The position numbers and the translations under genes were made by a program. Under the pieces are notes generated by a model. It was not told where the DNA came from and made no database searches. It saw only the letters and a program-made list of their open reading frames with translations. From Mobula birostris (taxonomy: Eukaryota), in the NCBI RefSeq assembly GCF_030028105.1, contig NC_092380.1, forward strand, positions 81,217,717-81,281,716: DNA of 64,000 nt. Direction: 5' to 3'. Each line of letters starts with the position of its first letter. Positions within the stretch are counted from its first letter, which is position 1. This document shows positions 1,804 to 58,980 of the stretch, in pieces.

Positions 1804-4671
1804 GATTGATGCACCTGATTGCACAACAGATAACTGGATATTGTATGCTGAGTGGATCAAGTAGTATTTTGAAGCAAATGAAAACCAACTTGTAGTCTTG
1901 CTGAGTGCGTTGGGTTGGAAAGCACAGTTTGCTTAGAAGTTTGATTGCTCCAACCAAGCTTGCTGAAATGAGCTTTGCTGATATCATGAAAGTAATGCAG
2001 GAACAATTGGAATTAAACCCATTGTTGAATACAGGGCACTTTAAGTTTAATTAGTGGAATCAAAAGGAAGGAAAGTCCATTTCACTATACATGGCTGAAT
2101 TGAAGTGACTGGCTGAACATTGTCAGTTCAGTGTAGGACTTAATAGACTGAGAGATTGTTTAGTTTTTGAATCTTTCAAAAAAGCATTCAAAAATGGCTC
2201 CTGACTGAAGCACAATGTACATTTAAATGAGCAGTTGAAATAGCTGTATCTATGGAAACAGCAGAAAGAGGTGCAATTGAGTTGCAGTCAGGAATGAAAG
2301 TGGGTGTGAACAAAGTTGTAGTGTCTAAGCAGAAACCAGCCCAGCCTAATAAGTTGTGTTACTGTTGTGACAGGGGCTTGCATACACTAGACAAATGCCG
2401 GTTTAAATGCTAACCAAAATGCAACAAAGTAGGACACATACAAAGAGCATGTTGGGCAGTCAAAAATAATGGACTGCACGGGGAAGAGAAAAAGATTAAA
2501 ATGTCAAGTTGCAGTTTCAAAAAGAGCACTAATCTACAGGCTAGTGATGAAAAAATCTGATAATGATGAGGTGACAGAGAAATAAGTCGCCTTGAGATTT
2601 ACATTGTGAAAACTGACAACAGACAAGCAATATGGCTTCACCACAAACAAACAGTTAGTAAATTAAAATGGAATTGGGCACTGGCTCAACTGTTTCAGTC
2701 GTACCACAAAATGAGCTTGAATGGCTCAAAGATCCTAAACTGAAGCCTGCAGATATCTAGCTAAGAACTTATATTGGAGAAAAGATGATTCCTGAGGGAG
2801 TAACGTTCGTAACAGTAAAATACAACAATAAATAAGCCAGATTGGGCTTGTATGTGGTAAAAGCAGGAGGACCAACATTGTGGAGACGTGAGTGGCTAAG
2901 ACAACTACAACTTAATTGGAGATCTATCCACCATTTCCATGCCACATCCCTTGCAACAGAGTCAACTGAGAGTGAATTAAGGTACTGGAAAATGCCACAG
3001 CAGTGTTTAAGGATGATATTGCAAAATGCAAACATATCAAGGGTAAAATAGTGTTAAGTAAAAATCCACACCCAAGTTTTTTAAAGCTCCTCCGGTTCCT
3101 TATACCATCTGTGATAAAGTAGTCAGTGAGCTAGATCGCATAGGGTCAGAAGGAATTCTTTTCAAGGTTGAGTGGAGACCCTAGGCAACATCAGTAGTCA
3201 AGAAGAATAGGTCTGTCAGGATCTGAAGTGATTTTAAGGTCATTATTAACCCAATACAGTAAGTAAATCAATACCCTCTTCCCAGGATAAAGGATATCTT
3301 TGCAACCCTTTCCGGAGCTAAACACTTCAGCAAAGTGGACTTAGAGGACCTCCTAACAATGGAGATGGAAGAAGAGTCCACAGTGTTTCTCAGCATAAAC
3401 ACTCACAAAGGGTTTATCATTATACAGTACTAGGTTTATTTTTAGAGTGGCATCTGCACCTGCACTCCTGCAGTTAGCTATGGACCAGGTGCAGCACGGC
3501 TGTCCATGCACTCAGTGCTACTTGGATTAATCATTGTTACTGGTGAAGATGACAAGGAACATCTCCAAAATTTCAAGATAGCATTAAAAAGATTAAAAGA
3601 TTTTGAGCTCAGAGCACAACATGACAAATGTGAATTCTTTAAGCCAAGTATCACTTACTGTGGCCACACCATTGACACACAAGATTTACCCAAGTGTGCT
3701 TAGAAAATTCAAGCAGTGATGGATGCCCCAGGACCAAAGAATGTGTCACATTTGTGGACTTTTTTAGGATTTGTCATTTCAGGTTCTTGTTAAACCTGGC
3801 CCTTGAACTCATTACTGCAGATCAGGAAGAAATGGCAATGGAGAAAGCAGAGTGCGGTGACTTTTCACAAGATAAAGAAAATGGTGACGTCAGATGCTGT
3901 ACTCACGCATTATGATTCACATTGTCCAATGAGGCTTGTAATGCATCTTCAGGATTCCCAGTAGAAAGGTGTCCAGAGCTGTCAGAACCACTACTTGCAG
4001 TCCCAAAGTCAACTACTACAACCACAACGGAGAAGGCCCTGGAACATGGGACTGTTTCATGGACACAATTCTCACTTGCCAGGCAGAGTGACCCCTCCTT
4101 CTCTATTGTCAGGAAAGACATTACCCCCTCCCACAAGAGTAAGGAATCCTCCACAGCAATTAAATCTTAAATTAGGTCTGAATGGGACAATTTAAAATTG
4201 GGGTAGGGGGATCATGGTTGGGAAAAGGTTAAGGGAACGGAGAGGAAGCGGGAAGCACTAGAGAGACATTCCATAATGATCAATAAACCAATTATTTGGA
4301 ATCAAATTACCTTGCCTGATGTCTGCACCCTTGCCCCCCACCCCCTGGCCCTGGTACTCCTTCTATGCCGCCTGTCCTAACCCTTCCCGTGGCACTCCAC
4401 CCTCACCTTTCCCAGCATCGTTTGCTCCCGCCAGATTTACAAGCTTGCCGTCTGCTCCACATTGGCAAATGCAATACTGTGCAGAAGTTTTAGGCACTTA
4501 GCTATATAGATGTATCTAAGACATTTGCACAGTACTATGTGTGCATGTGTATATTGCATACGTCATGTCTATGCTTCTCGATTAAAGTAAAAACAAATCC
4601 AAGATACGTTATTTCTGGCTCCATGCTTTCCTTTCAATTAATCTTATGTTTTTGAGTTACAAAACATAACA
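1804..4671 (+). mobile_element. Degenerate Gypsy LTR retrotransposon (copy A): gag, protease, RT, then an internal deletion and a 3' LTR remnant
   Basis: Gag-like NWILYAEW..YFEANE; zinc-knuckle remnant near 2355; protease IKMELGTGSTVSV (decayed DTG) near 2665; RT QCYLD-IIVTG...KCEFFKPSITYCGH at 3500-3690. RNase H is truncated near 3945. An LTR-like end with ATTAAA finishes at ...CATAACA (4671). Many stops and frameshifts. Confidence 0.85.
4472..4537. mobile_element. Tiny Tc1/mariner-like MITE hairpin
   Basis: TACTGTGCAGAAGTTTTAGGCAC ... GTATCTAAGACATTTGCACAGTA form inverted repeats (18/23 match) around a ~14-nt spacer. Confidence 0.6.
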
Positions 4672-5731: not shown

Positions 5732-8676
5732 TGTAATGTATGGATCTATTTCTTGCGGAGCAATGACCTGCCCCACCGGACTCCCCTGTTAGCACTATGT
5801 ATTGATCTGTGTCTGTGCACGCGTTGTTGTCTACGCCTGCGCATTGTTCTCTCTCTCTCTCTCATTGCAAACTGACTACATCAGTTAAAGCCATCTCCCG
5901 CGTGCATGCTTTTTTTAATCAATACGTAGTTGTGTGTAGACATAACATATTGACAACGGGTACGAACCTGAATGTCAGAAAATGTCACGAACTGCACCAA
6001 CAGTTACAGCATGGTTACAGGACAAAACAGCGAAAGTTAAACAGTGGAGAGAAGGTTGTCATGGACGCTAACAAAGGTGTGAGAATGGTGCCTAGTAACA
6101 GTAAAAGACATGCGGAATTTAAAGTGAAAATAACGCAGCAATGGCTTCATTCGGGAAAGTTGATGAATTTGATAATGCCAATGAAGTCTGGGAGTCATAT
6201 TTCAACAGGGTTGAACTGTATTGTTACGTGAACAATGTGGAAGAGCAAAAGAAGCCCCTACACTTCTTAGCTTAATAAGCCCAAAAATGTACAGTCTCTT
6301 ACGCAATCTAGTAACTCCTGACAAGCCAGCAAGCAAGACATTCAACCAAATCTTTACAATTTTACTAAGTCACTTGAGCCTTAAACCGCTGGTAATACCT
6401 GAGTAATTTAGATTTTACAAAAGGAGCCAGTCAAAAGAATACTTTGCAGAACTGTGCAAACTTTCACAGTACTGTGACTTTAGAGATAGACTTTGTATGC
6501 ATTAAGGGACAGGTTCGTATGTGGCATGTATAGTTAAAGCACCCAAAAGAGGGTACTATCTAAAAGAGACCTAACCTTAGAACGGGCATTGACCATTGCA
6601 TTATTGTTAGAGACTGTAACAAAGGATGCAGCAGAACTACAGAAAAGGAGGTTAGAATGTGAAATGCACAAAATGTCCCTGAGTGGCACAAAAAGCCAAA
6701 AACGTTATCGATGTGACACATCCTCCCATGGTGCAAATGACTGTTAGTTCAAAGAAGAAGTAGGCAGAAAGTGTCACAGACAAGGTCGCATAGAGAGAAT
6801 GTGCAAGGCAGACAAAAAGCACAACTGAGGGAAAAGTCTCAAACACAAAGCTAAGCAAATGCGTAAAGTTACCGAATGTAAAACAGAATCAGACAACATA
6901 GAGTCTGACAGAGGTGAACTGTCATGCCTATAACTGCAGAGTATAACTGAAGCAGATCACAGAATTATCTGGATCACAATAGATGTATCTGGTGTAAAAC
7001 TGAAAATGGAGCAGGATACAGGGTCAGCTTTGTCCATAATTCCGGAGGCTGACTACAACAGACTGTTTTCTAGGATAACATTGGAGAAGGCCTTAGAGAT
7101 GCTAAACACCTACACAGGTGAAGAAGTATCTCCCAAAGGCAAACTGAAGATAAATGTGACGTATGGAGGCCAAACACAGCAATTAGAGATTTATGTATTG
7201 AAAAGTGGAGGGCCAACACTTTTCAGATGTGAATGGTTGAGAAAAGCCCAACTAGATCGGCATTTAATCAAAGCTCTCAGTGTGGAATCAACTGGTAACT
7301 GCGGCCCAAATGGTAGCACTAACCAAAGACTACCACGGTTGCTTAATGCTAATCAGAAGGTGTTTGAGAAGGGAATAGATAAACAAATCGAAGACTTAGC
7401 TGAAAGATGCCAACAAATTCAAAATGCACCCCCATGGGCAGCGTTACACCCGTGAGAGTGGCCATCTTCACCATGGCAAAGAATACATATTGACTTTGCT
7501 GGGCTATTCAAGGACTCTCATGTTTCTGATTGCTCTGGATGCTCATTCGTAGTGGCTGGAGGTTATACCAATGAAGTCTGCCACCTCGGCAAAGACTGTC
7601 TGCACGCTGAAGACTTTCTTCGTCAGAAATGGCTTACCAGAAGAAACTGTGTGTGACAATGGACCACTGTACACGTCAGAAGAATTCTGACTGTTCATGT
7701 AGAAAAATGGCATCAGACATTTCAAGTCAGCTCCTCACCACCCAGCGCTAAATGGGTTAGCTAAAGGGTTTATTTAAACCCTGAAGAAATCCATTAGAAC
7801 GATGGACAAGGAGGTCATTTCTCTACAGCACAAAGCGGACAACTTTCTTTTTGTGTATCAGATCTCTGCTCATGCGATGACAAATCAAACACCTGCAATG
7901 CTGTTCATGAACAGGAAACTGAGATCTCATATAGACCTCCTGAAACCAGATCTATAGAGGGAAGTGCAGAATAAACAGTTCAGCTAGTTGCCAAATGAAC
8001 CAGCAAGGAGCTTCAAGATTGGACAGGAAGTCCTAGTGTGTGATTTCTGAGAAGACAAGTGGAAGCCTGCTAGGATAGCTACAAGAACTGGAACACTGAT
8101 GTACACAATGGATGTTGGAGATCAGACATGGAGATGTCATGAGGACCAGATACTGGATGCTGAACCGAAGAACACACCTAGGTCGACTGCATCCAACAAG
8201 ACGGACACATTACCATCACCAGACTTACCTCGCGACGATGATAGCAACGTGACATGGGAAAGCAAGAATGTTGTCTTAGACAAGATACCTATCAAACTGA
8301 TGCCAATCCACAGGTTCAGAGACGCTATTGTGAAAGAAACGGAACGCCATCCAAACACTGAACTTTTAGAATTGTGAAGTTAGTTATGGATTGTGAAAGC
8401 ATGTTTATTTGGAATATGGGTTTATAAAAGAGAAATTAAATGTTTTGTACATATACAGTTTTATGTTGCATTAATCTAAAGGGGGAGGATGTGTAGTGCA
8501 TGGATCTATTTCTTTTAGAGCAATGACCGCCCCCCCCTTAGCACCACGTATTGATCTATTGTCTGAGCATACGCATTGTTCTCTTTCTCTCGATGCAATG
8601 TGAATATACCAGTTAAAGCCATCTCCCGTGTGAAAGCTTCTATTTAGTCGATATGAGGTTGTGCGCAGACACAACA
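5732..8676 (+). mobile_element. Gypsy provirus (copy B) with both LTRs, RT and RNase H deleted
   Basis: 5' LTR 5732-5947 (TGT...ACA), 3' LTR 8492-8676, PPT AAAGGGGGAGGA at 8478-8489, 5-bp TSD GCACT/GCTCT. Gag ~6150-6850; protease MEQDTGSALS at 7006; integrase core (RIHIDFAG...DNGP) ~7480-8000. Confidence 0.92.
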
Positions 8677-9398: not shown

Positions 9399-10470
9399 TC
9401 AGAATCAGATTTATTATCACTGTCTTATATGACATGAAACTTGTTTGCTTGCAGCTGTAGTAGAGTGCAAAGAGCTAAAATTACTATAAATAGCGCAAAC
9501 AAAAAAGGAATAATGAGGCAGGGTTCATGGGTTCATGGGTTCATGGAGCATTCAAAATCTGATAGTAAGAAGCTGTTTATAAATCATTGTGTGTGGGCCT
9601 TCAGACTCCTGTACTTCTTCCCTGATGCGGTAGTGAGAAGACGGCATGTCCCAGATGAGGCTCTTTCATGATGAATGCCACATTCTTGAGGTGTCACGGC
9701 TTGAAGATATCATTGATGATGGGGATGATTGAGTTCATGATGGAATTGGCTGTGTCTGCAGCCCTCTGCAGTCTCTTGCGATTCCATGTGCTAAAGTGTC
9801 CATATCAGGTGCAACCAGTCCGAATGCTCTCCACTGTATATCTGTAACTACTCAAACTGCTGGTGTACCTTCTTCATCATTGCATCAATGTGTAGAGCCA
9901 GGACAGATCTTTTGAGATGCTGACACCTAGGAACTTTCCCTTTTCACCACTGATCCATCAATGAGGACTGGTGCATGTTTTCCTGACTTCCCCTTCCTGA
10001 AATCCAAAATCAATTCCTTAGGCATGCTGATGTTGAGTTCAAGGTTGTTCTTGTGACACCAGTCAACCTCTGTCTCACTCCTGTATACTTTCTTGTTGTT
10101 ATCTGAGATCTTACCAATAGTAGTGTTTCCTGCAAATTTATACATGGCATTTGAACTGTGATTAGCCACACAGCCATCAGTGTAGACAGCAAAGAGCAGT
10201 AGGCTAAGCATGCATCCTTGAGGTGTATCTGTGTTGATTGTCAATGAGGAGGAGATGTTATTACTAATCGGCACTGACTGTGGTCTCCCGATGGGAAAGT
10301 TAAGGATCCAGTTGCAGAGGAAGGTACAGAGGCCCAGGTTTAGAAGCTTGGTTATTGATAATGAGGGGATAGTGGTAATGAATGCCAAACTGTAATCAAT
10401 AAACAACAACCTTACTTAAATTTTGCTGTTGAATACGTGCTCCAAAGCAGAATGAGAGCCAGTGAGATTT
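9399..10470 (-). mobile_element. Rex/Babar-type LINE, 3' part with RT
   Basis: ORF 9927-10409 reads LFIDYSLAF...[11 protein letters not shown]...KFAGNTT (decayed FADD). AATAAA and a GATTCT-type tail lie on the minus strand at ~9400-9415. Confidence 0.85.
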
Positions 10471-11023
10471 CTTCAAAGAGTTTTGAGCACTTCCAGACTA
10501 AGGGCTCAAACTAAGCACCTCTTTTAAGCGTTATAAGAGCACCATGCTTTCAGCCCATAGCCCAAGAGTCATGAATGATTCTAACAACATGATTTATTTA
10601 ATTGCAAGCAAGTAGCAGAGTTGCATTCACATTAAAGAAGCTGTGAAACGATGTTGTTTATTGGAAAGGCTGGCAAAGCTGAAGGCATGTCTGTCTGTCT
10701 GGGATCATCACATCATATAATTGCAGTCTAAAGAATAGGGTGTGACTGCTTTATCTCCCTCATAACCCACAGACGTTGATGCATCGCTGTGCATTTATAT
10801 CTTCTGTAAACTAAATGGGGAAATATTGCAACCAGGAATAGATATTCCATTACAAGGGAGTATTTAAGATTTCATTCATTTTCTTTTCGAAAAGAAGGCT
10901 GGGGAGTAGTTAAGTGGTTTGTGATGAACGTATTCTGTCCTGTTCATGGATTTACTCAATACCATGTTTGCTTCTCTAGAAGTAAGTATATTACATTTTT
11001 AAAAAATTTTTCCTTTATTAAAG

Positions 11024-11323
11024 CGGTGGTCCCCAACCTCCGGGCTGCGGACCGATACATTGCCGCGAAGAATGCAGCAGTACAGCGGTAGCCAGAACGC
11101 ACCCAGCACACCTTTAAGAAAAAGCCGAAATAAACATGCTAATTAATTAGGTGCATTGCCTCTAATCTGGGCCGACATTTACGTGCCGGGCGGCACCCAA
11201 TTAATTATTTTGTTTATTTTGCTTTTTTCTTAAAGATGTGCTGGGTGCGTTCCGACTACCTCTGCATTCCTGCATGCTTCACGGCAATGTATTGGTCCGT
11301 GGCCCCGAGGTTGGGGACCACTG
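11024..11323. mobile_element. hAT-type MITE, 300 bp, largely palindromic
   Basis: TIR C(G/A)GTGGTCCCCAACCTC; 8-bp TSD TATTAAAG/CATTAAAG; inverted symmetry continues for over 100 bp inside. Confidence 0.9.
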
Positions 11324-13149
11324 CATTAAAGGATATCAGTATAACATTTTATTATTTTGGTTGACACTCACTGAGAAGCCACGTGAAACAAGAAGTTATA
11401 TTTATCCAGCAAAAGGATATGAGGGCCATCCTTCAGAATGATTTGCATGTGATTTCAAAGTGGTTATGTCACCTGCAAGACCAACCTTTATTCCCCTATC
11501 CTGTGTACCCTTGGTGATAACTGAATGGTTTGGTAAGCCTCTTTAGAAGTCACCCATATCAATGTGAAATGAAATTACCAATATCTCAGCCCACTTATAA
11601 TATTTTATAGCAAACAAAAGTTTTTAAACACTTTTCCTAAAAGCCAAATTACGTGCCAATGATGTGGCTTTGAGCTCATATTCTATGGATTAAACTTTCC
11701 AGATTACTTCCCTGTAACATTCCTGATTGCATCATTGCAACTCTTCAATTTCTGGCATCCATGCTCTATGCCATTCCATGTCATTATCCTGGTGGAATAT
11801 ATGGAAGATTATCTCTGAAGTTTAAGCAATAATCCAATGAATGAACATTCACGTCATTGAACGTATTTGAACCAAGTTGTTGGACTGCCTTCCAGGTCTC
11901 ACAGCATCACCTACTTGTAGGGATGCCAGCTCAGGTCAGCACTGCAAGGAGTCTGAGCAGCATAGTTTAGGAAGGTGAGGGCTGGAACATTACAGAGAGC
12001 TCAGCCCCACAGTAAAAGCACTCAGGATCAGACTGCAGTGAGCTAATAGGTTGGCAACTGAGATTAGGCATGAACTTTAAATAGAGTGCCAACATACAGG
12101 AAAGGCAATAACTGCCAGCAATTATGGATGTGATTCCCTGCATGGCTGAGGAAAATCTGCCCCAATTCATGCCAGATCTTTACTGGAATTTAACAAAACT
12201 CTACAGTTCTGTAAAAGTAAGTAGTACAGGCAATTTTATATCATTTTAAATATCATTAAGTTAAATAACAAAGACTTTTATACTATGAAGCAATATTTTA
12301 GAAAGAACAGTAGTACAGCAAGCATTCAAAATTGTAAATAACTATTTTCACCTTAGAAATAATAAAAAAACAAAAAATATAATACTAAAGGATGAGATCC
12401 CATTAGCTATGGCTTTTTGGCCAAAGTGATGACTGTATTTTGAAGCTACTAATTTAAATTAAGAAGGCTAAAGGAACAGAAAAGAGGAGCTAAGGGTGAT
12501 TAGAATTGTACAGAAACAGGCACTTTAACCTACCTTATTTATGCTAACCTTTTTGTTCATTTACACTAATCCCATTGTCCCACATTGGGATGGTATCCTT
12601 TTAAACCTTGCCCATTTAAGTATCTGTCTAAGTACCTCCTCAGCATAGTAATGTACCTGATTTCAGCAGGTGTTCTAATGTACAGAAACAAACTACAACA
12701 AATTCAGAGTGTATCACATTATAGCACACCTAGTATTCACTTGCAAGGGAAACTACCTCCAGAGATTATGTTGGAGAACAGCTTCGATCTTGTATCTCAA
12801 AGCACTTTTATACTTTTTACAGAGAACAGTAATTAGGTTGCTGTATTCCATAACATTCTTCTATTATCTTGTTCTGATATCTGTTGTTCAGAAGCTGCTT
12901 ACCACTGTTGTCAAAACATCCACTGTCATAAAAAATATACAGCTTCCTCTCATAACATACACACACACACCCATAAAACACATGTAAGCTCCCATCTAAA
13001 CCAGCAAAGCACCTTAGGATTTCGTAAGTTCCATTTTGTCACATTGTCTTTTACAAAAGTTACAAATTCATAAAGACTTCCGGATTACAGATATATTGCC
13101 GCAAAACTATAGGCTTGAACCACTAGCTCTCTCCACTTCCCAACATTCT

Positions 13150-18152: not shown

Positions 18153-18221
18153 GGAGAGAAATATGATGGTCGTAAAGCAGACGTTTGGAGCTGTGGTGTC
18201 ATCCTTTTCGCACTCTTGGTG
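18153..18221 (+). CDS. BRSK2: BRSK2 (SAD-A) kinase-domain internal coding exon, 69 bp
   Basis: tttag|GGAGAG...TTGGTG|gtaagt; translates GEKYDGRKADVWSCGVILFALLV (kinase subdomain IX). RKADV matches BRSK2 rather than BRSK1 (RRADM). Phase 0/0. Confidence 0.95.
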
Positions 18222-19175: not shown

Positions 19176-20352
19176 GTTTTAATTCCCATTCCCATTCCCG
19201 TTCTGACACGTTGGTCCATGGCCTCCTCTTGTGACAAGGTGAAGCCTCTGTCTGGGTAGCCTCCAACCTAATGATATGAATATGGATTTATCCTTCCATA
19301 AACACATTCCCCCTCCCCCACCACCACCACCACCACCACCATTCCCTACTCTGTCCTTTTACCTCTTCTCACTTCCTATTACTTCCCCCTGGGTCCACTC
19401 CTCCTTCTCTTTCTCCTATGCTCCACTCCTAGTAGATTCCTTCTATGTAGGGCATGCAGGTACAGCAGGCGGTGAAAAAGGCGAATGGTATGCTGGCATT
19501 CATAGCAAGAGGATTCGAGTACAGGAGCAGGCAGGTACTACTGCAGTTATACAAGGCCTTGGTGAGACCACACCTGGAGTATTGTGTGCAGTTTTGGTCC
19601 CCTAATCTGAGGAAACACATTCTTGCCATAGAGGGAGTACAAAGAAGGTTCACCAGATTGATTCCTGGGATGGCAAGACTTTCATATGATGAAAGGCTGG
19701 ATCAACTAGGCTTATACTCACTGGAATTTAGAAGATTGAGGGGGGTTCTTATTGAAACGTATAAAATTCTAAAGGGATTGGACAGGCTAGATGTAGAAAG
19801 ATTGTTCCCGATGTTGGGGAAGTCCAGAACGAGGGGTCACAGTTTAAGGATAAAGGGGAAGCCTTTTAGGACTAAGATGAGGAAAAACTTCTTCACACAG
19901 AGAGTGGTGAATCTGTGGAATTCTCTGCCACAGGAAACAGTTGAGGCCAGTTCATTGGCTATATTTAAGAGGGAGTTAGGTATGGCCCTTGTGGCTAAAG
20001 GGATCAGGGGGTATGGAGAGAAGGCAGGTACAGGGTTCTGAGTTGGATGATCAGCCATGATCATAATAAATGACGGTGCAGGCTTGAAGGGCCGAATGGC
20101 CTACTCCTGCACCTATTTTCTATGTTTCTATGTTTCTCCAGCCCTGACCTTTCCCACCCACCTGGCTTCCCCTCCCCCACCTTTTTATTCTGGCATCTTA
20201 CCCCATCCCTCGCAGTCCTGAAGAAAGGTCTCGGCCCAAAACTTTGGTTATCCATTCATTTCCGTAGATGCTGCCTTTCCCGCTGAATTCCTCTAGCATT
20301 TTGTGTGTGTTGCTGTGGACTTCCAGCATCTACAGACTTTCTTGTGTTTTTG
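19176..20352 (+). mobile_element. Old Penelope-like element 3' end, split by a CR1 insertion
   Basis: 19176-19444 resembles the PLE end at 33830-34000 (TTTAATTCC..CCCATTCCC, CTGGGTAGCCTCCAACCT). It resumes at 20137 with a pyrimidine-rich UTR and a decayed hammerhead motif. Confidence 0.8.
19445..20136 (+). mobile_element. Young 5'-truncated CR1 LINE
   Basis: Uninterrupted ORF2 C-terminus 19454-20041 (LYKALVRPHLEYCVQFWSP...TRGHSL...QRVVNLWNSLP), 3' UTR hairpin GGCCGAATGGCC and (TTCTATGT)n tail. Confidence 0.95.
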
Positions 20353-21551: not shown

Positions 21552-22331
21552 CAGACATCCCACCCTGCAAAAACTCAATTCAGGGAGGTAGCACCATCAA
21601 TTTGCGGGAGACTTCCGGGAGAGGTGGGATGTCTGCGATTGAGTAGCTCCTTAGCAGCTGGCCAGCTAGTTTAAATAACGTTAGCTATGCTAATGAACGA
21701 ATGACACCTGTTAAACTCACCTCAACATGTCTTTTACAGTTTTAACCCACCATGGGCAATAGAAAAGTCACTGTTGCAAACTGTCATTATTTTGACCCCT
21801 ATTAGGCAGAGGTACACTTTAGGGTAGTCTGGGGTGATGTACGTTTTATATTTTCTTTTTTTTGGAACTCTCTGCTACTGTGACTTCTTTTGGAACTATC
21901 TCGCTCTCTCTCTCATTCGTGGTCGCTCTCACTCGCTCTCGCTCTTGATCTCGCGCTCGCTCTTGCTCTCGCCCTCTTGCTCTTGCTGTCGCGCGCTCAC
22001 TCTTGCTCTCGCTCTCTCGCGGTTGCTCTCACTCGTGCTCGCTCTCTCACTCTTGCTCTCACTCACGCGCTCGCTCTCTCGCTCTTGCTCTCGCGCTCAC
22101 TCTCGCTCTGTCTCGCTCTTGCTCTCGCGCGCTCGCTCTCTCATGGTCGCTCTCACTCGCGCTTTCTTTCTTGTTCTTGCACTCACTCTCTCGCTCTTTC
22201 TCGCGCGTTCTCTCTCTCTCGCTCTCAAAAAAAATCAATTTCCGGGACATTGTATATAATTTGCGGGCATCAGGGAGCCACTATTAATATGCAGGAGACT
22301 CCCGGAAGTTCCGGGAGAGGTGGGATGTCTG
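21552..22331. mobile_element. Non-autonomous DNA transposon with 13-bp TIRs and a 7-bp TSD (P-element-like)
   Basis: CAGACATCCCACC ... GGTGGGATGTCTG, flanked by a perfect CAGATAC direct repeat (21545-21551 and 22332-22338). Confidence 0.85.
21897..22226. repeat. Degenerate (CTCTCG/CTCTTG)n microsatellite
   Basis: Low-complexity CT/CG hexamer array inside the MITE. Confidence 0.9.
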
Positions 22332-26630: not shown

Positions 26631-27607
26631 TACTTACAGACTTGAAATTTCAAATTTTTGCTAGTTTTGCAGTTCATTTTTGATGCTGGCTTCTGTTTGT
26701 TTTTTTGAATTTTATATGAATATTTAACATTTTTTGCAATGTTTGAAATATTTTTTTTCAATTTTTTCAAAAATGGAGCATAGATTTCTTTTAACGGAGC
26801 ATAAGACAACTAAATATTTTTGCCTTTAATTGAAACATCCTTAAGAGTTCATCGGGAAAACATTTAAAGTAGAACACAAAAAGAAACTCAATACTGTGTA
26901 TTTTCAAAGATCAAACAAGGCACTTTAGTGTCTAGTCAGGTTCCACTGGATGGGGGTTCTTTCGTCTGTGATATAAGTTGAATATTAATAATCACCAGCC
27001 CTTAAAACTGCATTTGCCATTATTTTGTATATTGAAATATTGAAGCTGACTTGGTTTATCCAGAATACTTGCTGTAGGAAACAGACCAGCCAATGACGAT
27101 TAAAATCATATTTTCATATTTTTTTTCGATAATTGTATGGAAGTATTTTTAAGTAATATGAAAATTTGTGAAGATCACATTTTGTGAAGCAGAAATGCCA
27201 GTATTGAAGCACTGCTCCCAGCTTATACTGCCATTCAGCCAGAGTCATTTCTGAGAGATTGTGTAGATCAGCTGAACTGGAGAGCAAAGAACCCTGAGCT
27301 GGTCATAGCATCAAATTGCTACAAAAAAAAGTGAGGAAGAATGAGTGTTATTGGATATCAAGGCAATGTGATTTTCCTTCCTTATCGATGCGAGCTAATA
27401 TTTACATTTGCCTTTAAGATTGACATTTATGAAGACCCACCACTCTGTCGATGTGGAATTAGAGCAAATTATTTGATGAAACAGGTGGTGGAATACAGAA
27501 GTCAGATATGGAGGTAGAAATCTAACTGTATTTGAGTCTTAAACAAAGCAGAAATAAAGTTCAGAAGCATGAAGAATAATTCCACTAAAACAGAGGGAAA
27601 AGGTTGT

Positions 27608-27756
27608 AAACACGAGGAATTCTGCAGATGCTGGATGCGGCGGAGACGGAGGAATTGCGAGAAGGGTCAGTCCTGACGAAGGGTCTTGGCCCGAAATGTA
27701 GACTGTACCTCTTCCTGGAGATGCTGCCTGGCCTGCTGTGTTCATCAACAACTTTG
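27608..27756 (+). mobile_element. Rearranged mini Penelope-like element with hammerhead motif
   Basis: Inverted PLE 3' end, then an inverted 33-bp RT fragment (32/33 identical to 31737-31769), then a forward PLE terminus. Confidence 0.85.
27668..27705 (+). ncRNA. Minimal type I hammerhead ribozyme motif (PLE-associated)
   Basis: CAGTC-CTGACGA-A-GGGT(CTTG)GCCC-GAAA-TG-TA-GACTG: 5-bp stem I, complete CUGANGA and GAAA boxes, GUA cleavage triplet. Confidence 0.7.
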
Positions 27757-28164: not shown

Positions 28165-28880
28165 GTAAGTGGAACAGGTCAAAGGCTTTAAGTTCCTTGG
28201 GGTCAATATCACAAATGACCTGACTTGGTCCAACCAAGCAGAGTCCACTGCCAAGAAAGCCCACAGGCACCTTTACTTCCTGAGAAAACTAAAGAAATTT
28301 GACCTGCCCCCTGAAACCCTCACTAATTTTTATAGAAGCACCGTAGAAAGCATTCTTCTCGGGTGCGTCACAACCTGGTATGGAAGTTGTCCTGTCCAAG
28401 ACCGAAAGAAGCAGCAGAAGATCGTGAACACAGCGCAGCACATCACACGAACCAATCTTCTGTCCTTGGACTCACTTTACACCGCACGTTGTCGGAGCAG
28501 TGCTGCCAGGATAATCAAGGACATGACTCACCCAGCCAACACACTTTTCATACCTCTTCCCTCCGGGGGAAGGCTCAGGAGCTTGAACACTCATACGGCC
28601 AGATTTGGGAACAGCTTCTTTCCAACTGTGATAAGACTGCTGAACGGATCCTGACCCGGATCTGGTCCATACCCTCCAAATATCCAGACCTGCCTCTCAG
28701 TTTTTTTGCACTACCTTACTTTCCCTTTTCTGTTTTCTATTTATGATTTATAATTTAAATTGTTAATATTTACTATCAATTTGTACTCCAGGGAGCGCAA
28801 AGCACAGAATCAAATATCGCTGTGATGATTGTATGTTCTAGTATCAATTGTTTGGTGACAATAAAGTATAAAGTATAAAT
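28165..28880 (+). mobile_element. Young Rex/Babar-type LINE 3' end
   Basis: Open ORF 28169-28654 (FKFLGVNITNDLTWS...LYFLRKLKKF...LPSGGRLRS...FFPTVIRLLN), then AATAAA and an (AAAGTAT)n tail. Confidence 0.9.
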
Positions 28881-30850: not shown

Positions 30851-31320
30851 AGCTGCACCTGCTGGTGTTTTAAGGTGGTCAAGTAGACATGAACAGGGTG
30901 GTAAAAAGCACTGCTCGCAGTGCAAAGGGTCCATGGAGACACTGCGCTACTGCAGTCAGCAACTCTCTCTGTGAGGTCACCAGCAAGGTAATCTGTCAGA
31001 AATAATGTTCCAAAAATACAGTACGTGAATGCCTACACTTTGGATGATGACTGGAGATTTTTTAAAAAAAAGATGAAATTGTCTCTGTTTGAGTTTAGAG
31101 TTGATTCTCCCAAATGCAGCAAACTCAGAAATATGCCCAAGTTCTGTGGCAGCCGCCTGGAATAATCCTAAAACAGGGAACCTGGGAGCGACCTTTGACA
31201 CCATAGGCAAAGCAATGTAGCACTATTCTGAGACATGGTTTGAAAATGTAGGATTTTAGGGATGTTAGTGCAGTCTAGATGGTGGTCATTTTAAAAAACA
31301 AGGATTCAGAATCAGATTAT

Positions 31321-32389
31321 TTACTCTTAATAATTTCTCCTTTGGCTCCTCCCACTTCCTCCAAACTAAAGGTGTAGCTATGGGCACCCGTATGGGTTCT
31401 AGCTATGCCTGCCTTTTTGTTGGGTTTGTGGAACAATCTATGTTCCGTGCCTATTCTGGTATCTGTCCCCCACTTTTCCTTCGCTACATCGACGACTGCA
31501 TTGGCGCTGCTTCCTGCATGCATGCAGAACTCGTTGACTTTATTAACTTTGCCTCCAACTTTCACCCTGCCCTCAAGTTTACCTGGTCCATTTCCGACAC
31601 CTCCCTCCCCTTTCTAGATCTTTCTGTCTCTGTCTCTGGAGACAGCTCATCCACTGATGTCTACTATAAGCCTACTGACTCTCACAGCTATCTGGACTAT
31701 TCCCCTTCTCACCCTGTCTCTTGCAAAAACGCCATCCCCTCCTCGCAATTCCTCCGTCTCCGCCGCATCTGCTCTCAGGATGAGGCTTTTCATTCTAGGA
31801 CGAGGGAGATGTCTTCCTTTTTCAAAGAAAGGGCCTTCCCTTCCTCCACTATCAACTCTGCTCTTAAACACATCTCCCCCATTTCACGTACATCTGCTCT
31901 CACTCCATCCTCCCGCCACCCCACTAGGAATAGGGTTCCCCTGGTCCTCACCTATCACCCCACCAGCCTCCGGGTCCAACATATTATTCTCCGTAACTTC
32001 TGCCACCTCCAACAGGATCCCACCACTAAGCACATCTTTCCCTCCCCCTCCTCTCTCTGCATTCCGCAGGGATCGCTCCCTACACAACTCCCTTGTCCAT
32101 TCGTCCCCCCCATCCCTCCCCACTGATCTCCCTCCTGGCACTTATCCGTGTAAGCGGAACAAGTGCTACACATGCCCTTACACTTCCTCCCTTACCACCA
32201 TTCAGGGCCCCAAACAGTCCTTCCAGGTGAGGCAACACTTCACCTGTGAGTCGACTGGGGTGATATACTGCGTCCGGTGCTCCCGATGTGGCCTTTTATA
32301 TATTGGCGAGACCCGACGCAGACTGGGAGACTGCTTTGCTGAACATCTACGCTCTGTCCGCCAGAGAAAGCAGGATCTCCCAGTGGCCA
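31321..32389 (+). mobile_element. Penelope-like element: RT C-terminal half and GIY-YIG endonuclease, truncated at both ends
   Basis: GVAMGTRMGSSYA...FLRYIDD...LPFLD...YYKPTDSHSYLDY (PLE RT). After a frameshift near 32050 comes C-rich linker CKRNKCYTC and VIYCVRCSRCGLLYIGETRRRL (GIY-YIG). Confidence 0.95.
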
Positions 32390-32849
32390 AAAGTGGAATG
32401 TTAGCTTTCATTCTAGCCCTCATTAATAAATGTGCTCAGCAAGTAAGCAATGTGAAAGTGAGAGACCTCAATATATAAAGGTAGTGACTGGGAACTCCTT
32501 TTCCTAAATATAGTTTTCCTTCATAATTCCAAAATGGCTTCACAAATGTGTTAAGTCAATGTATAAATACATCAAAAAGGGTACTTGCAATACAGATCAT
32601 ATAATCTGAATACATACTCTCATTCACTAAAGCACGACCCAGAAAATGATAGGATGACCAGAGCAGGACAAGCGGCCAGAAGAGGAGAGGTTTAAAGACA
32701 AGAAGGATATCAGCTGGGAGTCTATGCAGTAAAGGTGTTCATGGAGTAATTTTCCTAAGCAATCTCAGCAACAATCAACTATGGAAGCTGACGCTGAAAT
32801 CTAGTAATGGTGCAACTACAACTTCAACCTAAAGAAAGCTGTCAGATTC

Positions 32850-33245: not shown

Positions 33246-33267
33246 TTAATTAACTAATTAATTAATT

Positions 33268-34385
33268 AAAGGGGCTTCCCTTCCTCCACCATCAACTATG
33301 CTCTCAAACGCATCTCCCCCATTTCACGCACATCTGCCCTCACTCCATCTTCCCGCCACCCCACTAGGAATAGGGTTCCCCTTGTCCTCACTTACCACCC
33401 CACCAGCCTCCGGGTCCAACCTATAATTCTCTGTAACTCCCACCACCTCCAACGGGATCCCACCACTAAGCACATCTTTCTCTCCCCCCCCCCCCCGCTT
33501 TCCGCAGGGATCCCTCCCTACGCGACTCCCTTGTCCATTCGTTCCCCCCATCCCTCCCCATCGATCTCCCTCCTGGCACTTATCCGTGTAAGTGGAACAA
33601 GTACTACACATGCCCTTACACTTCCTCCCTCACTAACATTCAAGGCCCCAGACAGTCCTTCCAGGTGAGGCGACATTTCACCTGTGAGTCGGCTGGGGTG
33701 ATACACTGCGTCCGGTGGTCCCGATGCGGCCTTCTATATATTGGTGAGACCTGACACAGACTGGGAGATCGTTTCGCTGAACACCTACCCTCTGTCCACC
33801 AGAGAAAGCAGGATCTCCCAGTGGCCACACATTTTAATTCCACGTCCCATTCCCATTCTGATATGTCTATCCACGGCCTCCTCTACTGTAAAGATGAAGC
33901 CACACTCAGGTTGGAGGAACAACACCTTATATTCCGTCTGGGTAGCCTCCAACCTGATGGCATGAACATCGACTTCTCTAACTTCCGCTAGGCCCCACCT
34001 CCCCCTCATACCCCTTCTGTTACTTATTTTTATGCACACATTCTTTCTCTCACTCTCCTTTTTCTCCCTCTGTCCCTCTGAATATACCTCTTGCCCATCC
34101 TCTGGGTCCCCCCCCACTTGTCTTTCTTCCCGGACCTCCTGTCCCATGATCCTCTCGTATCCCCTTTTGCCAATCACCTGTCCAGCTCTTGGCTCCATTC
34201 CTCCCCCTCCTGTCTTCTCCTATCATTTTGGATCTCCCCCTCCCCATCCAACTTTCAAATCCCTTACTCACTCTTCCTTCAGTTAGTCCTGACAAAGGGT
34301 CTCGGCCTGAAACATCGACTGCACCTCTTCCTAGAGATGCTGCCTGGCCTGCTGCGTTCACCAGCAACTTTGATGTGTGTTGCTT
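33268..34385 (+). mobile_element. Penelope-like element 3' part (GIY-YIG, 3' UTR/pLTR)
   Basis: High identity to 31828-32389; ORF stop TAG at 33989-33991; pyrimidine-rich UTR; CpG-decayed hammerhead at 34285-34320. Confidence 0.93.
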
Positions 34386-38903: not shown

Positions 38904-39119
<216 letters not shown>

Positions 39120-45923: not shown

Positions 45924-46457
45924 AAATAGAAAATCAATATTTTGGGTTGAGACCCTTCATCTAGACTGAAGGGTCACTGGAATGAAGAATAGATGAAAGG
46001 TCTCAACACAAACATTGACTGTATATTTTCCTCCTGAACAGCTTATTATGTGCCACTCAGGAAACTATTAAGATTGGATAAGCTCCCTATTTTACACCAT
46101 TTTCAAATTGTCGTCCTATTGAAGCCAAGTCAGGTGGTATATTAAACAGCAGTCAGTCTAATCCCATCCTGAGAATTCTGTAAGAATTCCATCAAAAAGT
46201 TGTAAACTTGTTGATTTCACAAATAGTAAAGGTGCAGTAAAAATCAACATGGGCAGATGGAATGAAGGAATATAGAGGCAGAAAAAATAAAGATACATTT
46301 TGTGGACTGTTTAGTGATATGAATACTGCTGTGCTCTGATTGAAACAAATGGACTGTTTCCATTGCATAATGTTGCAAAAAGATACACCACAAATCAGAA
46401 ATAAGAACTTCAATATGTTCTTGTTTCTGGCTAATATAATTACATGCTATAACTTGT

Positions 46458-49400
46458 TAGAAACCATAGAACCCATAGAAAAACTACAGCGCAGAAACAG
46501 GCCTTTTAGCCCTTCTTGGCTGTGCCGAACCATTTTCTGCCTAGTCCCACTGACCTGCACACGGACCATGTATCTCCGTATACTTCCCATCCATGTACCT
46601 GTCCAATTTATTCTTAAATGTTAAAAAAGAACCTGCATTTACCACCTCATCTGGAAGCTCATTCCACACTCCCACCATTCTCTGTCTGAAGAAGCCCCCC
46701 CAATGTTCCCTTTAAACTTTTCCCCCTCACCCTTAACCTATGTCCTCTGTTTTTTTTTCTCCCCTTGCCTCAGTGGAAAAAGCCTGCTTGCATTCACTCT
46801 ATCTATACCCATCATAATTTTATATACCTCTATCAAATCTCCCCTCATTCTTCTACGCTCCAGGGAATAAAGTCCTAACCTGTTCAACCTTCCTTTGTAA
46901 CTGAGTTTCTCAAGTCCCAGCACCATCCTTGTAAACCTTCTCTGCACTCTTTCAACCTTATTAATATCCTTCCTGTAATTTGGTGACCAAAACTGAACAC
47001 AATACTTCAGATTTGGCCTCACCAATGCCTTATACAACCTCATCATAACATTCCAGCTCTTATACTCAATACTTTGAGTAATAAAGGCCAATGTAACAAA
47101 AGCTCTCTTTACCACCCTATCTACCTGTGGTGCCACTTTTAGGGAATTTTGTATCTGTATTCCCAGATCCCTCTGTTCTACTGCACTCCTCAGTGCCTTA
47201 CCATTTACCCTGTATGTTCTACCTTGGTTTGTCCTTCCAAAGTGCAATACCTCACACTTGTCTGTATTAAACTTCATCTACCATTTTTCAGCCCATTTTT
47301 TCCAGCTGATCCAAGTCCCTCTGCAAGCTTTGAAAACCTTCCTCACTGTCCACTACACCTCCACTATTTGTATCATCAGCAAATTTGCTGATCCAATTTA
47401 CCACAGTATCATCCAGATCATTGATATAGATGACAAATAACAATGGACCCAGCACTGATCCCTGTGGCACACCACTAGCCACAGGCCTCCACTTGGAGAA
47501 GCAATTCTCTACTACCACTCTTTGGCTTCTTCCATTGAGCCAATGTCTAATCCAATTTACCACCTCTCCATGTATGCCTAGCGACTGCATTTTCCTAACT
47601 AACTTCCCATGCGGGACCTTGTCAAAGGCCTTACTGAAGTCCATGTAGACAATATCCACTGCCTTCCCTTCATCCACTTTCCTGGTAACCTCCTCGAAAA
47701 ACTCCAATAGATTGGTCGAACATGACCTACCACGCACAAAGCCATGTTAACTCTCCCTAATAAGTCCCTGTCTATCCAAATGCTTATAGATTCTGTCTCT
47801 TAGTACTCCCTCCAATAACTTACGCACTACCGACGTCAAATTTACCTGCCTATAATTTCCCGGATTACTTTTCAATCCTTTTTTAAACAACGGAACAACA
47901 TGAGCCATTCTCCAATCCTCTGGCACCTCACCCGTAGACACCGACATTTTAAATATATCTGCCAGGGCCCCTGCAATTTCAACACTAATCTCCTTCAAGG
48001 TCCGAGGGAATACCCTGTCAGGTCCCGGGGATTTATCCACTTTAATTTGCCTCAAGATAGCAAGCACCTCCTCCTTTTCAATCTGTACAGTTTCCATGAT
48101 CTCACTACTTGTTTCCCTTAATTCTGTAGACTTCATGACAGTTTCCTTAGTAAATACAGACGCAAAAAAGCCACTTAAGATCTCCCCCATTTCTTTTGGT
48201 TCCGCACATAGCTGACCACTCTGATCTTCAAGAGGACCAATTTTATCCCTTCCAATCCTTTTACTCTTAATATACCTGTAAAAGCTCTTTGGATTATCCT
48301 TCACTTTGACTGCCAAGGCAACCTCATGTCTTCTTCTAGCCCTCCTGATTTCCTTCTTAAGTATTTTCTTGCACTTTTTATACTCCTCAAGCACCTTATT
48401 TACTCCCTGTTTCCTATACATGTCATACAACTCTCTCTTCTTCTTTATCAGAGTTGCAATATCCCTTGAGAACCAAGGTTCCTTATTCCTATTCACTTTG
48501 CCTTTAATCCTGACAGGAACATACAAGCTCTGCTCTCTCAAAATTTCTTCCTTGAAGTCTTCCCACTTACCGATCACATCTTCGCCAGAGAACAACCTGT
48601 CCCAATCCACACAATTTAGATCCTTTCTCATTTCTTCATGTACGGGGTCTTCCTTTTGTTACATTTAAAATGGTGATTTTGTTATGTTAATCTGTGGAAT
48701 GCGGCTTTGTTGTGTTTTAACGCTGCAGAGAGTTTGCGCTAGCAGCTTGTTGTGGTTTAGAGGGTGATAAGAGGGTGCTATTAGCCAATGGGTGGTTATG
48801 TATCGTTTTGTTTTCGGATGCCATGCTGTATGATATGACTGTGGACTGAGTTTTGGCGGGGAGTCGGGAGGAGAGACGAGGAGGATGGTGGACGTGCGGA
48901 GAGGCTCCGGTCGATCACTTCGGGTGGTCCCGAGCCGTGGGTCGACGGAATTCGGGTGGTCGTCTGATGTCGAATTTGAGCTCCAACGGTAGCGCGCGAA
49001 GAACTTGGACTTTGATAAGTGTTGGCGCCTTTTTTTTTCCCCATTACTTTCCTCTCTGTATCAAATGTATATTAATGCCCTAGATTTAGTAATATCTATA
49101 AAGTGTATGTGTTAAAATTTACTGGGTGTGCTGGCTGATGATTGATGTTTGTGATTGATTCGGGCGACGATTGACCCTGAGGGGACGGTTGAAGCAGGTG
49201 CTGGGCGGGATTTCCCCTAGACATTCACGAGCCAATATAACGGAACGTTACATTCAAATTTGGCCTTCTTCCAGTTCAGAACCTCAACCCTAGGACCAGA
49301 TCTATCCTTGTCCATGATTGTTGAAACTAATGGTGTTATGTATCAAAGTGCTTCCCTACACACACTTCCGTCACTTGTCCTAATTTGTTTCCTAATGGGA

Positions 49401-55548: not shown

Positions 55549-56688
55549 AAAGCATCGTGTGTTCAGCAAAAGTGGAGGGAGCTAATATTACAATATGTTA
55601 TGCTATTTATGTAATATATGGATCTATTTCTTTTAGAACAATGACATTCCCCCCCCGCTCTACATATTGATCTGTTATCTACACATGCACATTGTTCTCT
55701 CTCTCTCTATCACTGCAATGCGAATACACCAGTTTAAGTCATCTTCCGTGTGTGTGCTTTTATGTAATTGATATGTAATTATGCACAGACACAACAAATT
55801 AGCAATGGATGTCAGAAAATATGACGAACTACACCGACAGTTATGGGATGAAACATTGAGAGTTGAACAGCACGAGAATGCCGAAGGACTCATGGGTAAC
55901 AGTGAAAGACGTGTTGAATTTAAAGTGAAAATAATGTGGTGATAGCTTCATTTGGGAAAGCTGACGAATTTGATAGTGCTAATCAAGGCTAGGAGCTGAA
56001 CTGTATTGTAACGCGAACAACGTGGAGGAGCAAAAGAAAGCCCCTGCATTTCTTAGCTTAATGGGTGCAAGGACATGCAATCCCTTACAGAACCTAGTAA
56101 CCCCTGGAAAGCCAGCAAGCAAGACATTTGATGAAATTGTTACAATTTTACAAAATCAATTGAGCCCTAAACCACTGGCAATAGCTGAGAGATTTAGATG
56201 TTACAAAAGGAACCAGTCAAAATATGAAAGCATTTCTGTATACATTGCAGAACTGCACAAACTTTCCCGGTACTGTAACTTTAGAGATGGGCTTTCTGAT
56301 GCATTAAGGGACAGGATTGCATGCGGCATGCATTGTCAAAGCACTCAAACATGGCTACTGACAGAAAGAGACCTAACCTTAGAACGGGCATTACCGTTGC
56401 AATATCATTAGAGACTGTAGCAAAGGATGCAGCAGGACTACAGAAAAGGAGGTTAGAATTGAAATGTACAAAATGCCCCTGAATGGGGCAAAAAGCCAAA
56501 GATGTTATCAATGTGGCAAATCCTCCCATGATGCAAATGACTGTTGGTTCAAGGAAAAAGTCTACAGAAAGTGTCACAGATAAGGCCACATAGAGAGAAT
56601 GCAGAAGACAGACAAAAAACACATCCAAGTGAAAAGTCTCAAAAACAAAGCTAAGTAATTGAATAAAGTTATCAAATATAAAACAGAA

Positions 56689-56912
56689 TCCTGCACCTAT
56701 TTTCTATGTTTCTATGTTTCTTGGCTCCATCCCTCCCCCTCCTGTCTTCTCCTATCATTTCGTATCTCTCCCTCCCCCTCCCACTTTCAAATCTCTTACT
56801 AGCTCTTCCTTCAGTTAGTCCTGACGAAGGGTCTCAGCCCGAAACGTCGACTGTACCTCTTCCTAGAGTCGCTTCCTGGCCTGCTGCATTCACCAACAAC
56901 TTTGATGTGTGT
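56689..56912 (+). mobile_element. CR1 3' tail fused to a Penelope 3' end, inside Gypsy copy C
   Basis: TCCTGCACCTATTTTCTATGTTTCTATGTTTC (identical to 20105-20136) joined to sequence matching 34189-34380. Confidence 0.9.
56817..56852 (+). ncRNA. Minimal type I hammerhead ribozyme motif, intact core
   Basis: AGTC-CTGACGA-A-GGGT(CTCA)GCCC-GAAA-CG-TC-GACT: stem I AGTC/GACT, stem II tetraloop, palindromic ACGT in place of helix III, GUC cleavage triplet (cut after 56848). Confidence 0.8.
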
Positions 56913-58519
56913 TCCCTTATGGTATTGGAGCTGTTTTGTCACACATTATTTAAGATGGATTTGAACATTCAGCTGAGTTTGCTTCAAGATCACAACTGCG
57001 CATAGATTGGCTGAGAGGTCCTTAGTCTAGTATGGGGAATAAAAAAGTTCCACCACTACCTCCATGGGCAAAACAGTTATGCTGATGACAGATCACCGGC
57101 CCCTTGTGTTCATTTTCAATCCCAGGAAGGAAATTCCAGTGATCACTGCTATCCAGTTACAACTTTGGACATTATTTCTAGGAGCCCACTCTTATGACAT
57201 AGAGTTCAAGGGTACCAAACAACTCAACAATGCTGATGACTTGTCATGTCTTCCACTGTTGGCAACTGAAGAAGAAAAGTCTTCAGACTGTGACCCAGCA
57301 GAAGTGTTTCACATGGCATTGGTGGACCAGTTGCTGGTAACATATTCCGAAATACAAAAGGGAAACAAGGGATGACCCGACATTGTCAACAGTCTATGAA
57401 ATCACCATGCAAGGATGGCCAGCTCATGGTTTCCCTATGTTTCCAGAGATGAGACCAACTGTCAGTATGTGAAAGAATGCTGATGTGTGGATCTTGAGCT
57501 GTGGTTCCCTCTGAACTGCACATCAGACTGATAGAAAATCTGCGTGATGGACACCTAGGAACAGTCTCGCTCAGAGCTCTGTGTGGTGGCCGGGAATAGT
57601 TCAACAGATTGAAGACTTAGCCAATAGCTGTTTGGGATGCCAAAAAATTCAAAATGCACCCTCACAGGCACCGTTACACCCATGGGAGTGGACCAGTGAT
57701 GTGCACAGTGGATGTTGGAGATCAAACATGGAGACATCACGTGGACCAGATACTGGATGCTCAACTGAAGAACACACTTGAGTAGACTGCATCCAACAAG
57801 ACGGGCACATTACAGTCACCAGTGACTTACCTCTCAGTGATGATGCCACTGACAGCAACGTGACACGGGTATCCAAGAACGTTGTCTTAGGCAAGTCACC
57901 TGCCAAACCTGATGCCACTCCACAGGTCCAGAGGCACTATCCTGAGCGCCACCCAAAAGACTGAATCTTTAGAACTGTGAAGTTAGTGATAGACTGTTAT
58001 TGTGAAAGCATGTTTATTTGGAATATGGATAGTGAAAGGGAAATTAAATGTTTTGTACATATACCATTTAATGGTGCATTAATCTAAAGGAGGAGGAAGA
58101 GTAATGTATGAATCTCTTTCCTTTGGAGCAAAGTCCATCCATCTCACCCCCCACGTCCGACCAGCCGGCTTAGCACACAGTTGTCCACGCATGCACATTG
58201 TTCTTTCTCTCCCTCTCGCTACAATGCAAATACACCAGTTAAAGCCATCACCCATGTGCACACTTTTCTTTAATTGATTTGTAGTTGTGCACAGGCACAA
58301 CAATGTGAATGGCACAACATAGATATGAAATGAAAATTATTTTTAAGATGCGCATCTGAATTTGCTAATTCTATCATGAAGTTTTATTGAGAGTAATCTA
58401 GGCATCTTCAGAGAAGGGGACAGATTCAGAGTATGTCAACCAGCTGAGTTTGGTGTCTGGTGGTCTAAACTGAGTATATACCGTATCTCCTTGTGTTTAC
58501 ATTAAACAGTATTAAAAGA

Positions 58520-58980
58520 TGCAAGGAAACAAACTGCTGGAAGAACTATGTAGGCCAAGTTCAAGTTTAATTGTCATTCAACCATAGACATGAATACAGC
58601 CAGATGAAACTGCGTTCCTCTGTGGCCAAGGTGCAAAATACAGTATATATCAACATACACAGCGCAGAACTTAAAACTATAACTGCTCATAGAGTTACAA
58701 AGAAGAAAATAAAATAGCCCAAGTCTCTGAGCGTCATGGCCTATAGATTGATGATACAGAAGTGTTGATTCCTGGAGCTACATTTATTCATGCAACATCT
58801 GTGGAAGCAAAGAACTGACCAGTACATCAGGTTGAGACGCTGCATAAGGACTGGTGGAGGGTCTTGGTCTGAAATATTGGCCATCTCTATGCCACCACAG
58901 ATGCGGCTTTACCTGCTGAGTTCATTCAGCAATCTGTCTTTTGCCCCACATTCCAGCATATACAGTCTCTTGTGTCTCCA
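58520..58980. mobile_element. Decayed inverted/direct Penelope terminus interrupted by a LINE tail
   Basis: The inverted PLE end (58520-58555 and 58790-58850) and forward end (58855-58980) flank a minus-strand CAAGTTCAAGTTTAATTGTC-tailed fragment. Confidence 0.55.

Follow-up and report, generated by a model that had tools for sequence, protein, structure and literature searches.

A minimal hammerhead motif from a Penelope-like element in a BRSK2 intron of Mobula birostris: a likely passive relic

Introduction

Does a hammerhead ribozyme motif that lies, intact and in sense orientation, within a probable intron of BRSK2 cut the transcript that contains it, or is it a silent remnant of a mobile element? 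The question is raised by a locus in the genome of Mobula birostris, found in a 64-kb stretch of DNA that was analysed as a whole and is called the window here. A sequence-only reading of the window had described the motif and considered it capable of self-cleavage in the BRSK2 pre-mRNA. Minimal hammerheads of metazoan Penelope-like elements (PLEs) have reportedly been treated by Lunse et al.

Anatomy and significance of the motif

Inspection of the sequence reveals a minimal type I hammerhead motif at 56817-56852 on the + strand, with every core nucleotide present. Its parts are as follows.

56817-56820 with 56849-56852, +: stem I
56821-56827, +: first core box, CUGACGA
56828, +: extra nucleotide A, between positions 9 and 10.1
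56829-56832 with 56837-56840, +: stem II, three G-C pairs and one U-G pair
56833-56836, +: loop of stem II
56841-56844, +: core box GAAA
56844-56847, +: palindrome ACGU, in place of helix III

A fifth stem I pair is possible (U56816-G56853), the G10.1-C11.1 pair of stem II corresponds to G56829-C56840, and C17 is position 56848, with the predicted cut directly after it. The anatomy given by the sequence-only reading holds throughout: its core (CUGACGA, GAAA, GUC), stem I (AGUC/GACU) and stem II (GGGU/GCCC) agree base for base with the letters, the ACGU palindrome does stand where helix III would be expected, and the cut that it expected after 56848 coincides with the predicted site at C17.

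Rfam models and a minimal-hammerhead descriptor had been proposed as ways of checking the motif. A structure-aware descriptor matched two loci in the window, beginning at 56817 and 27669 and both on the + strand, while any match at all appeared in 3 of 300 dinucleotide shuffles of the window. Rfam, in comparison, gave no match anywhere in the 64-kb window at the gathering score, and at an E-value threshold around the motif it gave three weak matches, none of them a hammerhead; the minimal form seems to be absent from the Rfam models, which would explain the missing match. The bare core pattern, matched once in the window, was present in 40 of 100 shuffles and is not significant. Nor is the 36-mer exceptional in fold energy (z -1.5; equally good in 16 of 200 shuffles).

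A truncated Penelope-like element carries the motif

Three PLE segments of the window bear on the origin of the motif.

56719-56913, +: 5'-truncated PLE 3' end (pseudo-LTR) of 195 nt carrying the hammerhead, 90% identical to 34187-34381
33270-34385, +: sister PLE copy, with a broken C-terminal RT/linker and GIY-YIG, a 3' UTR and then a hammerhead
31317-32391, +: second PLE fragment, with RT (YIDD), a CX4CxxC linker and GIY-YIG, frameshifted and without a 3' end

On sequence grounds, the hammerhead belongs to the terminal repeat of a PLE that has lost its 5' part, because 56719-56913 shares 90% identity with the end of the copy at 33270-34385, which bears GIY-YIG. The same identity supports the earlier assignment of a minimal type I hammerhead to a PLE. 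Window self-comparison and protein alignment place 34187-34381 after a PLE GIY-YIG frame that ends near 33990, and proteins with both RT and GIY-YIG align at 31317-32391 and 33270-33979. The CX4CxxC linker before GIY-YIG can be read in the window protein P0002, in which the GIY-YIG domain itself reaches E 0.21, against E 2.3e-5 in the relative P0023. The closest relatives of the reverse transcriptase are shark proteins (64-67%), which, like the BRSK2 matches to sharks and rays, marks the host as a cartilaginous fish. In the sister hammerhead at 34285-34320 (+), G8, stem II and the palindrome are changed. The statement that PLE coding sequence is missing thus stands for the copy at 56719-56913, which none adjoins, but not for the window, where the sister copies retain it. 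Other PLE copies in contigs of public runs extend beyond both 56719 and 56913, which confirms the two ends of the present piece.

The coding fragments at 31317-32391 and 33270-33990 are 90% alike and lie 1.44 kb apart, with unrelated sequence between them and no clean tandem. Also, the 5' end of the sister copy adjoins a (TTAA)n-like run at 33247-33269, which fits insertion at AT-rich simple repeats.

Nesting and age of the insertion

The truncated PLE end is itself nested in further mobile-element sequence.

55610-58302, +: Gypsy-type LTR retrotransposon, broken, its LTRs lying at about 55610-55796 and 58101-58302
56689-56721, +: 33-nt tail piece of a likely LINE, identical to the TTTCTATG-repeat tail at 20105-20137, 3 nt of it common to the PLE start

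The LTR element has an Integrase_H2C2 domain at 57548-57778 and RT_RNaseH look-alikes at 57043-57372, and a 225-nt composite insert, made up of the LINE tail piece and the PLE end, separates its gag-like part from its RNase H part. The claim that the motif sits inside a dead Gypsy-type element is therefore supported; the element is broken. A chimeric Gypsy family that carries the insert was considered and rejected, as depth drops by a factor of about 1000 at 56688/56689 and of about 50 or more at 56919/56920; the junction contig among those listed also has a single-copy-like depth of 9.97, which is again against such a family.

A contig of another organism (organism B) spans the 5' junction at 56538-56745 with an 8-nt gap and not one differing letter over 200 nt, and ends before the motif. 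Judged from this contig, the insertion is common to the window of Mobula birostris and a very close relative. Because the junction contig differs in no letter, organism B must be very close, and therefore no deep conservation is shown by the shared junction.

We presume that the LINE with the TTTCTATG-repeat tail at 20105-20137 is of CR1 type; the stretch at 19451-20038 matched only unnamed Atlas clusters, and Pfam gave no match there. PLE 3' ends directly follow such LINE tails at two of the three present in the window. Similarly, several public-run contigs join a TTTCTATG-repeat LINE tail to a hammerhead; at 56689, only 33 nt of tail are present. These junctions suggest either a target preference or LINE-PLE read-through. 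A second broken copy of the same LTR element at 5732-8676 is 74-76% like 55610-58302 and has different internal losses, keeping the protease part where the copy at 55610-58302 keeps RNase H and the integrase zinc finger.

Elsewhere, the window contains an inverted repeat at 11018-11329 (137-nt arms, 84%, with 38 nt between), possibly a small DNA-transposon derivative, a 29-nt tandem repeat at 243-387 and a degenerate CT/CG-rich simple-repeat array at 21892-22224. Pfam matches to RVT_1 or ALKBH8_N mark further retroelement remnants at 47291-47746 (-), 9930-10415 (-), 28169-28651 (+) and 3446-3700 (+).

The host gene

Two coding exons of BRSK2 were found on the same strand as the motif.

18153-18221, +: BRSK2 coding exon, residues 189-211 of P0145, AG/GT bounded
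38904-39050, +: BRSK2 coding exon, residues 212-260 of P0145, AG/GT bounded, the last exon found in the window

The exon at 38904-39050 has its best match to solved BRSK2 chains (E 9e-27) and is 100% identical to shark and ray proteins named BRSK2. No BRSK2 exon was found after 39050 up to 64000 by tblastn and a 6-mer scan with two full-length relatives. Since no later exon was found up to 64000, the motif would lie on the sense strand of the BRSK2 intron that follows residue 260 of 859, with the next exon beyond the window, and its proposed sense placement is supported by the exons on the + strand.

Relics, family size and constraint

The window holds seven homologous hammerhead relics including that at 56817, or about one per 9 kb. 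Six of them (56817, 34285, 27669, 20214 and 58847 on the + strand and 45967 on the - strand) were recovered by a 36-mer scan that allowed up to 14 mismatches, and the seventh, a gapped copy, was found by alignment. The five not described above are:

27669-27704, +: sister hammerhead, core boxes kept, palindrome AUGU, triplet GUA
20214-20249, +: decayed hammerhead of a related PLE family, whose PLE end begins right after the LINE tail at 20137
45932-45967, -: decayed hammerhead relic
about 45980-46015, +: decayed, gapped hammerhead relic
58847-58882, +: hammerhead relic in strong decay, with 14 mismatches in 36 and a broken core, the nearest sense copy to 56817

The mismatch count of the 58847 relic is near background, yet the downstream box of the family is present there. 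Six of the seven relics are sense to BRSK2 (p 0.125). The notion of one special ribozyme stranded in the intron gives way here to one of seven homologous relics in 64 kb and one member of a very large family. Inverted PLE pieces adjoin several relics: an opposite-strand pair lies near 45967/45980 (45925-46040), a reversed 5' half of the hammerhead precedes the 58847 relic (58828-58882), and a reversed PLE tail with a piece of ORF precedes the 27669 relic (27607-27668).

Contigs that match 56500-57100 numbered 67,963, 62,258, 17,765 and 2,673 in four public DNA runs, which were the four of 24 listed runs taken into the comparison, and their depth peaks on the two hammerhead bins, 56815-56856. 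The ratio of summed depth to single-contig depth, which is not a copy number, is about 570,000, 720,000 and 320,000 in runs X1, X5 and X9. Together with one relic per 9 kb, these ratios suggest PLE hammerhead ends on the order of 100,000, a figure no more precise than that. Loose contig ends pile up at 56817 (667, 781, 598 and 67 contigs) and at 56854 (507, 606, 501 and 57), which are the borders of stem I, and this 38-nt stretch is all that matches in hundreds of contigs whose flanks are unlike. Because so many contigs match only between the stem I borders, the motif is conserved across families, and such sharp homology borders in the contigs of other families favour constraint on the motif in active elements, for which they are the strongest evidence.

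Covariation had been named in advance as evidence that could speak against the motif. In the six window copies, a small and decayed set, none of the nine pairs has changed on both sides and 87% of cells pair, which is not above the shuffled control, so that the result neither supports nor refutes the fold. Most stem changes in these copies are from G-C to G-U, as expected from CpG/transition decay. Among the change types listed for the three larger runs, C>T and G>A lead, and position 56840 of stem II is T in about 36%, 45% and 11% of the depth in X1, X5 and X9; both speak for neutral decay of the copies.

Of its 195 positions, the copy at 56817 has 19 that differ from its sister at 34187-34381 and, among the positions listed, six or more that differ from the family majority, giving a divergence of about 3-5%. 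At that divergence, the probability that 15 core positions remain untouched is 0.47-0.63 under a uniform rate, and faster CpG decay would lower it. All four CpGs in the core and stems are intact and two of the three elsewhere have decayed (Fisher p 0.14), in a copy that was picked for being intact and with an ancestral CpG set presumed from the sister copies. With only about 3-5% divergence, the intact state would need no selection and fits a fairly young copy.

Family pattern scans also returned candidates in other collections (none in viral_contigs, two in metagenome_contigs and three in genome_contigs), which were dropped as non-members, since the five loci have in common with the family only the fixed pattern letters. 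L001 and L002 share an identical metagenome stretch at 401-462, with CUGAUGA, a hairpin and GAAA, that falls outside this PLE hammerhead family.

Predicted fold and prospects of cleavage

The predicted monomer is a rod in which 56823-56826 pair with 56845-56848 (-11.9 kcal/mol, against -7.9 kcal/mol for the open-core form). In three native contexts, the predicted pairing probability of stem I is 0.01-0.02, because an upstream hairpin occupies its 5' strand. For a double hammerhead, -14.7 kcal/mol is predicted against -23.8 kcal/mol for two rods, in nearest-neighbour energies that leave out tertiary core contacts and proteins. The hairpin upstream of stem I has 7 predicted bp at 56798-56819, and a similar stretch precedes the copy at 34285. 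It may represent an off state at the level of the family rather than a private change.

No tandem partner is at hand: the closest relic in sense orientation is broken and lies 2 kb away. The only other descriptor-passing copy in the window (27669, +) could in principle serve as a partner, being on the same strand of the same gene, but lies 29 kb upstream, across an exon. In the available text of PMC4209133, single minimal hammerheads had no detectable cleavage and dimers and trimers had low activity; similarly, PMC6765202, so far as available, holds that dimers, and perhaps chaperones as well, are likely required. Cleavage of the PLE hammerhead from anole required PLE protein; the hammerhead was dispensable for insertion in vitro, and no RNA-seq read was found to end at its site (PMC11167929). 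Because it has no tandem partner and its core is locked in the predicted fold, self-cleavage of the copy in the BRSK2 intron is unlikely. The same two grounds weigh against the earlier suggestion that the motif could cut the BRSK2 pre-mRNA.

Relation to known systems

The motif most closely resembles the minimal PLE hammerheads of Cervera and de la Pena (2014; PMC4209133). As described in the available parts of that report, these share its type I topology and core boxes (CUGANGA, GAAA, UH), a helix I of 4-5 bp, the G10.1-C11.1 pair, the extra nucleotide between 9 and 10.1, the palindromic 15.2-16.2 without helix III, and a location in PLE terminal repeats, mostly as single motifs in truncated copies. 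Having all sequence features of this class, the motif is hence a member of it as far as its letters tell. Differences are seen in helix II, with 4 bp here and 7-8 bp in the Schistosoma families (available text of PMC4209133), and in the host, a cartilaginous fish, a group unnamed in the text and two supplementary files of PMC4209133 that were available, although supplement file 1 may list such species. Density here appears well above the 4,000 motifs in coelacanth and 9,000 in Xenopus given in the available text of PMC4209133, figures that count descriptor-passing motifs, whereas ours is rough and counts all relics.

Among PLEs, the sister copies resemble EN+ elements of Neptune/Nematis type, which in the available text of PMC8557442 have RT followed by a C-terminal GIY-YIG and a CX2-5CxxC linker, the latter a mark of Neptune/Nematis, and show the same 5' truncation, inverted pieces and junctions at simple repeats. 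All window copies are broken, however, and the likeness to the elements of that text is one of linker and layout. The PAc hammerhead of the anole element Poseidon (Frangieh et al. 2024, PMC11167929) is likewise a PLE terminal-repeat hammerhead upstream of element 3' ends; it belongs to the Poseidon clade and undergoes protein-assisted cleavage in vitro, whereas the BRSK2-intron copy is known from sequence and has no ORF.

The non-LTR retrozymes, as far as available in bioRxiv 10.64898/2026.07.22.740005, share the type I hammerhead and the origin from PLE terminal repeats, include one chondrichthyan genome and have about 42-44% of their Xenopus copies in introns. They are tandem repeats of at least two hammerhead units, unlike the single truncated PLE end here, and a tandem retrozyme was rejected for this locus, as no sense relic lies nearer than 2 kb and the one at that distance is broken. 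Amniote intronic hammerheads (RECK, CTCL and DTNB; available text of PMC6155905) are also of type I and lie in introns of vertebrate genes, but they are conserved across birds, mammals or reptiles and have tertiary contacts, whereas the present copy has neither helix III nor shown deep conservation. A domesticated intronic hammerhead would be expected to have a stable monomer fold with helix III, and 56817-56852 has none. The whale shark genome is listed as containing Penelope elements (available text of PMC8455134). No dedicated report on hammerheads in cartilaginous fishes or Callorhinchus was found in the literature covered, with subscription papers and Repbase outside its scope.

Competing explanations

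We consider it very probable that the motif is a PLE 3' terminal-repeat hammerhead in a 5'-truncated copy within the BRSK2 intron, and that this copy is likely a passive, non-cleaving relic. By analogy with published PLEs, ACGU would pair two motifs of an active tandem element with each other, or PLE protein would refold them, and the motifs would then cut after C17. Reverse transcription of PLE RNA presumably begins near the 3' end, and therefore almost every truncated copy would carry the motif. The present copy would be transcribed with the BRSK2 intron, with no tandem partner and with its core paired in the predicted fold, and would have stayed intact through youth rather than host retention. 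That the stems and boxes are instead an accident of some repeat, never a ribozyme, is hardly credible. The missing Rfam match, the fold z-score of -1.5, the 0 of 9 compensatory pairs in six copies and pairing no better than in the shuffled control would all suit an accident, but the descriptor matched in only 3 of 300 shuffles, and in hundreds of contigs with unlike flanks the match is confined to the 38 nt between the stem I borders. Also against chance, the terminal-repeat site, the extra nucleotide, G10.1-C11.1 and the palindrome are as the available text of PMC4209133 describes for PLE hammerheads.

A conditionally active passenger, silent alone but cutting nascent BRSK2 intron RNA when helix III is provided in trans by a chaperone, a PLE protein or abundant PLE RNA, would need no host selection, and we regard it as improbable. 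Its core, stems and palindrome are intact, the family is so huge that trans partners could be plentiful, and 2,673 contigs of run X21 match, though X21 is probably DNA; yet two rods are predicted to be more stable than the double hammerhead by about 9 kcal/mol, and stem I is predicted to form seldom in its native context. A slow cut in an intron of more than 25 kb need not affect splicing, which counts against such a passenger as well. A PLE hammerhead was switched on by PLE protein in vitro, but anole RNA-seq had no cut ends (both PMC11167929). Far less plausible still is a domesticated intronic ribozyme that regulates BRSK2 output in the manner of the conserved amniote hammerheads (RECK and others). 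The sense strand of a BRSK2 intron, the four of four intact functional CpGs (not significant) and the 5' junction common to organism B could be cited for domestication. Without helix III, however, the motif has no stable monomer; it lies within nested debris of young mobile elements, sister copies in the same gene have decayed, and organism B is so close that the shared junction shows no deep conservation.

Implications

As a single locus, the motif matters little, since features of this sort are standard at PLE termini and were described in 2014. A broader proposal would start from a lineage with PLE hammerhead ends on the order of 100,000, thousands of them intact and many sense in introns, in which PLE protein or RNA would activate them in trans, pre-mRNAs such as that of BRSK2 would be cut genome-wide, and selection would shape the strand of the surviving intact copies. 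We think this quite improbable. Were trans activation true, latent cut sites in host pre-mRNAs would number in the thousands, all seeded by a retroelement, and the BRSK2 copy would be one of them. The side value of the finding lies in its scale, as the genomes of cartilaginous fishes seem to be unusually rich in minimal hammerhead motifs. Such motif-rich genomes are suited to asking whether intact sense-intronic copies are depleted, that is, whether minimal hammerheads cut in vivo.
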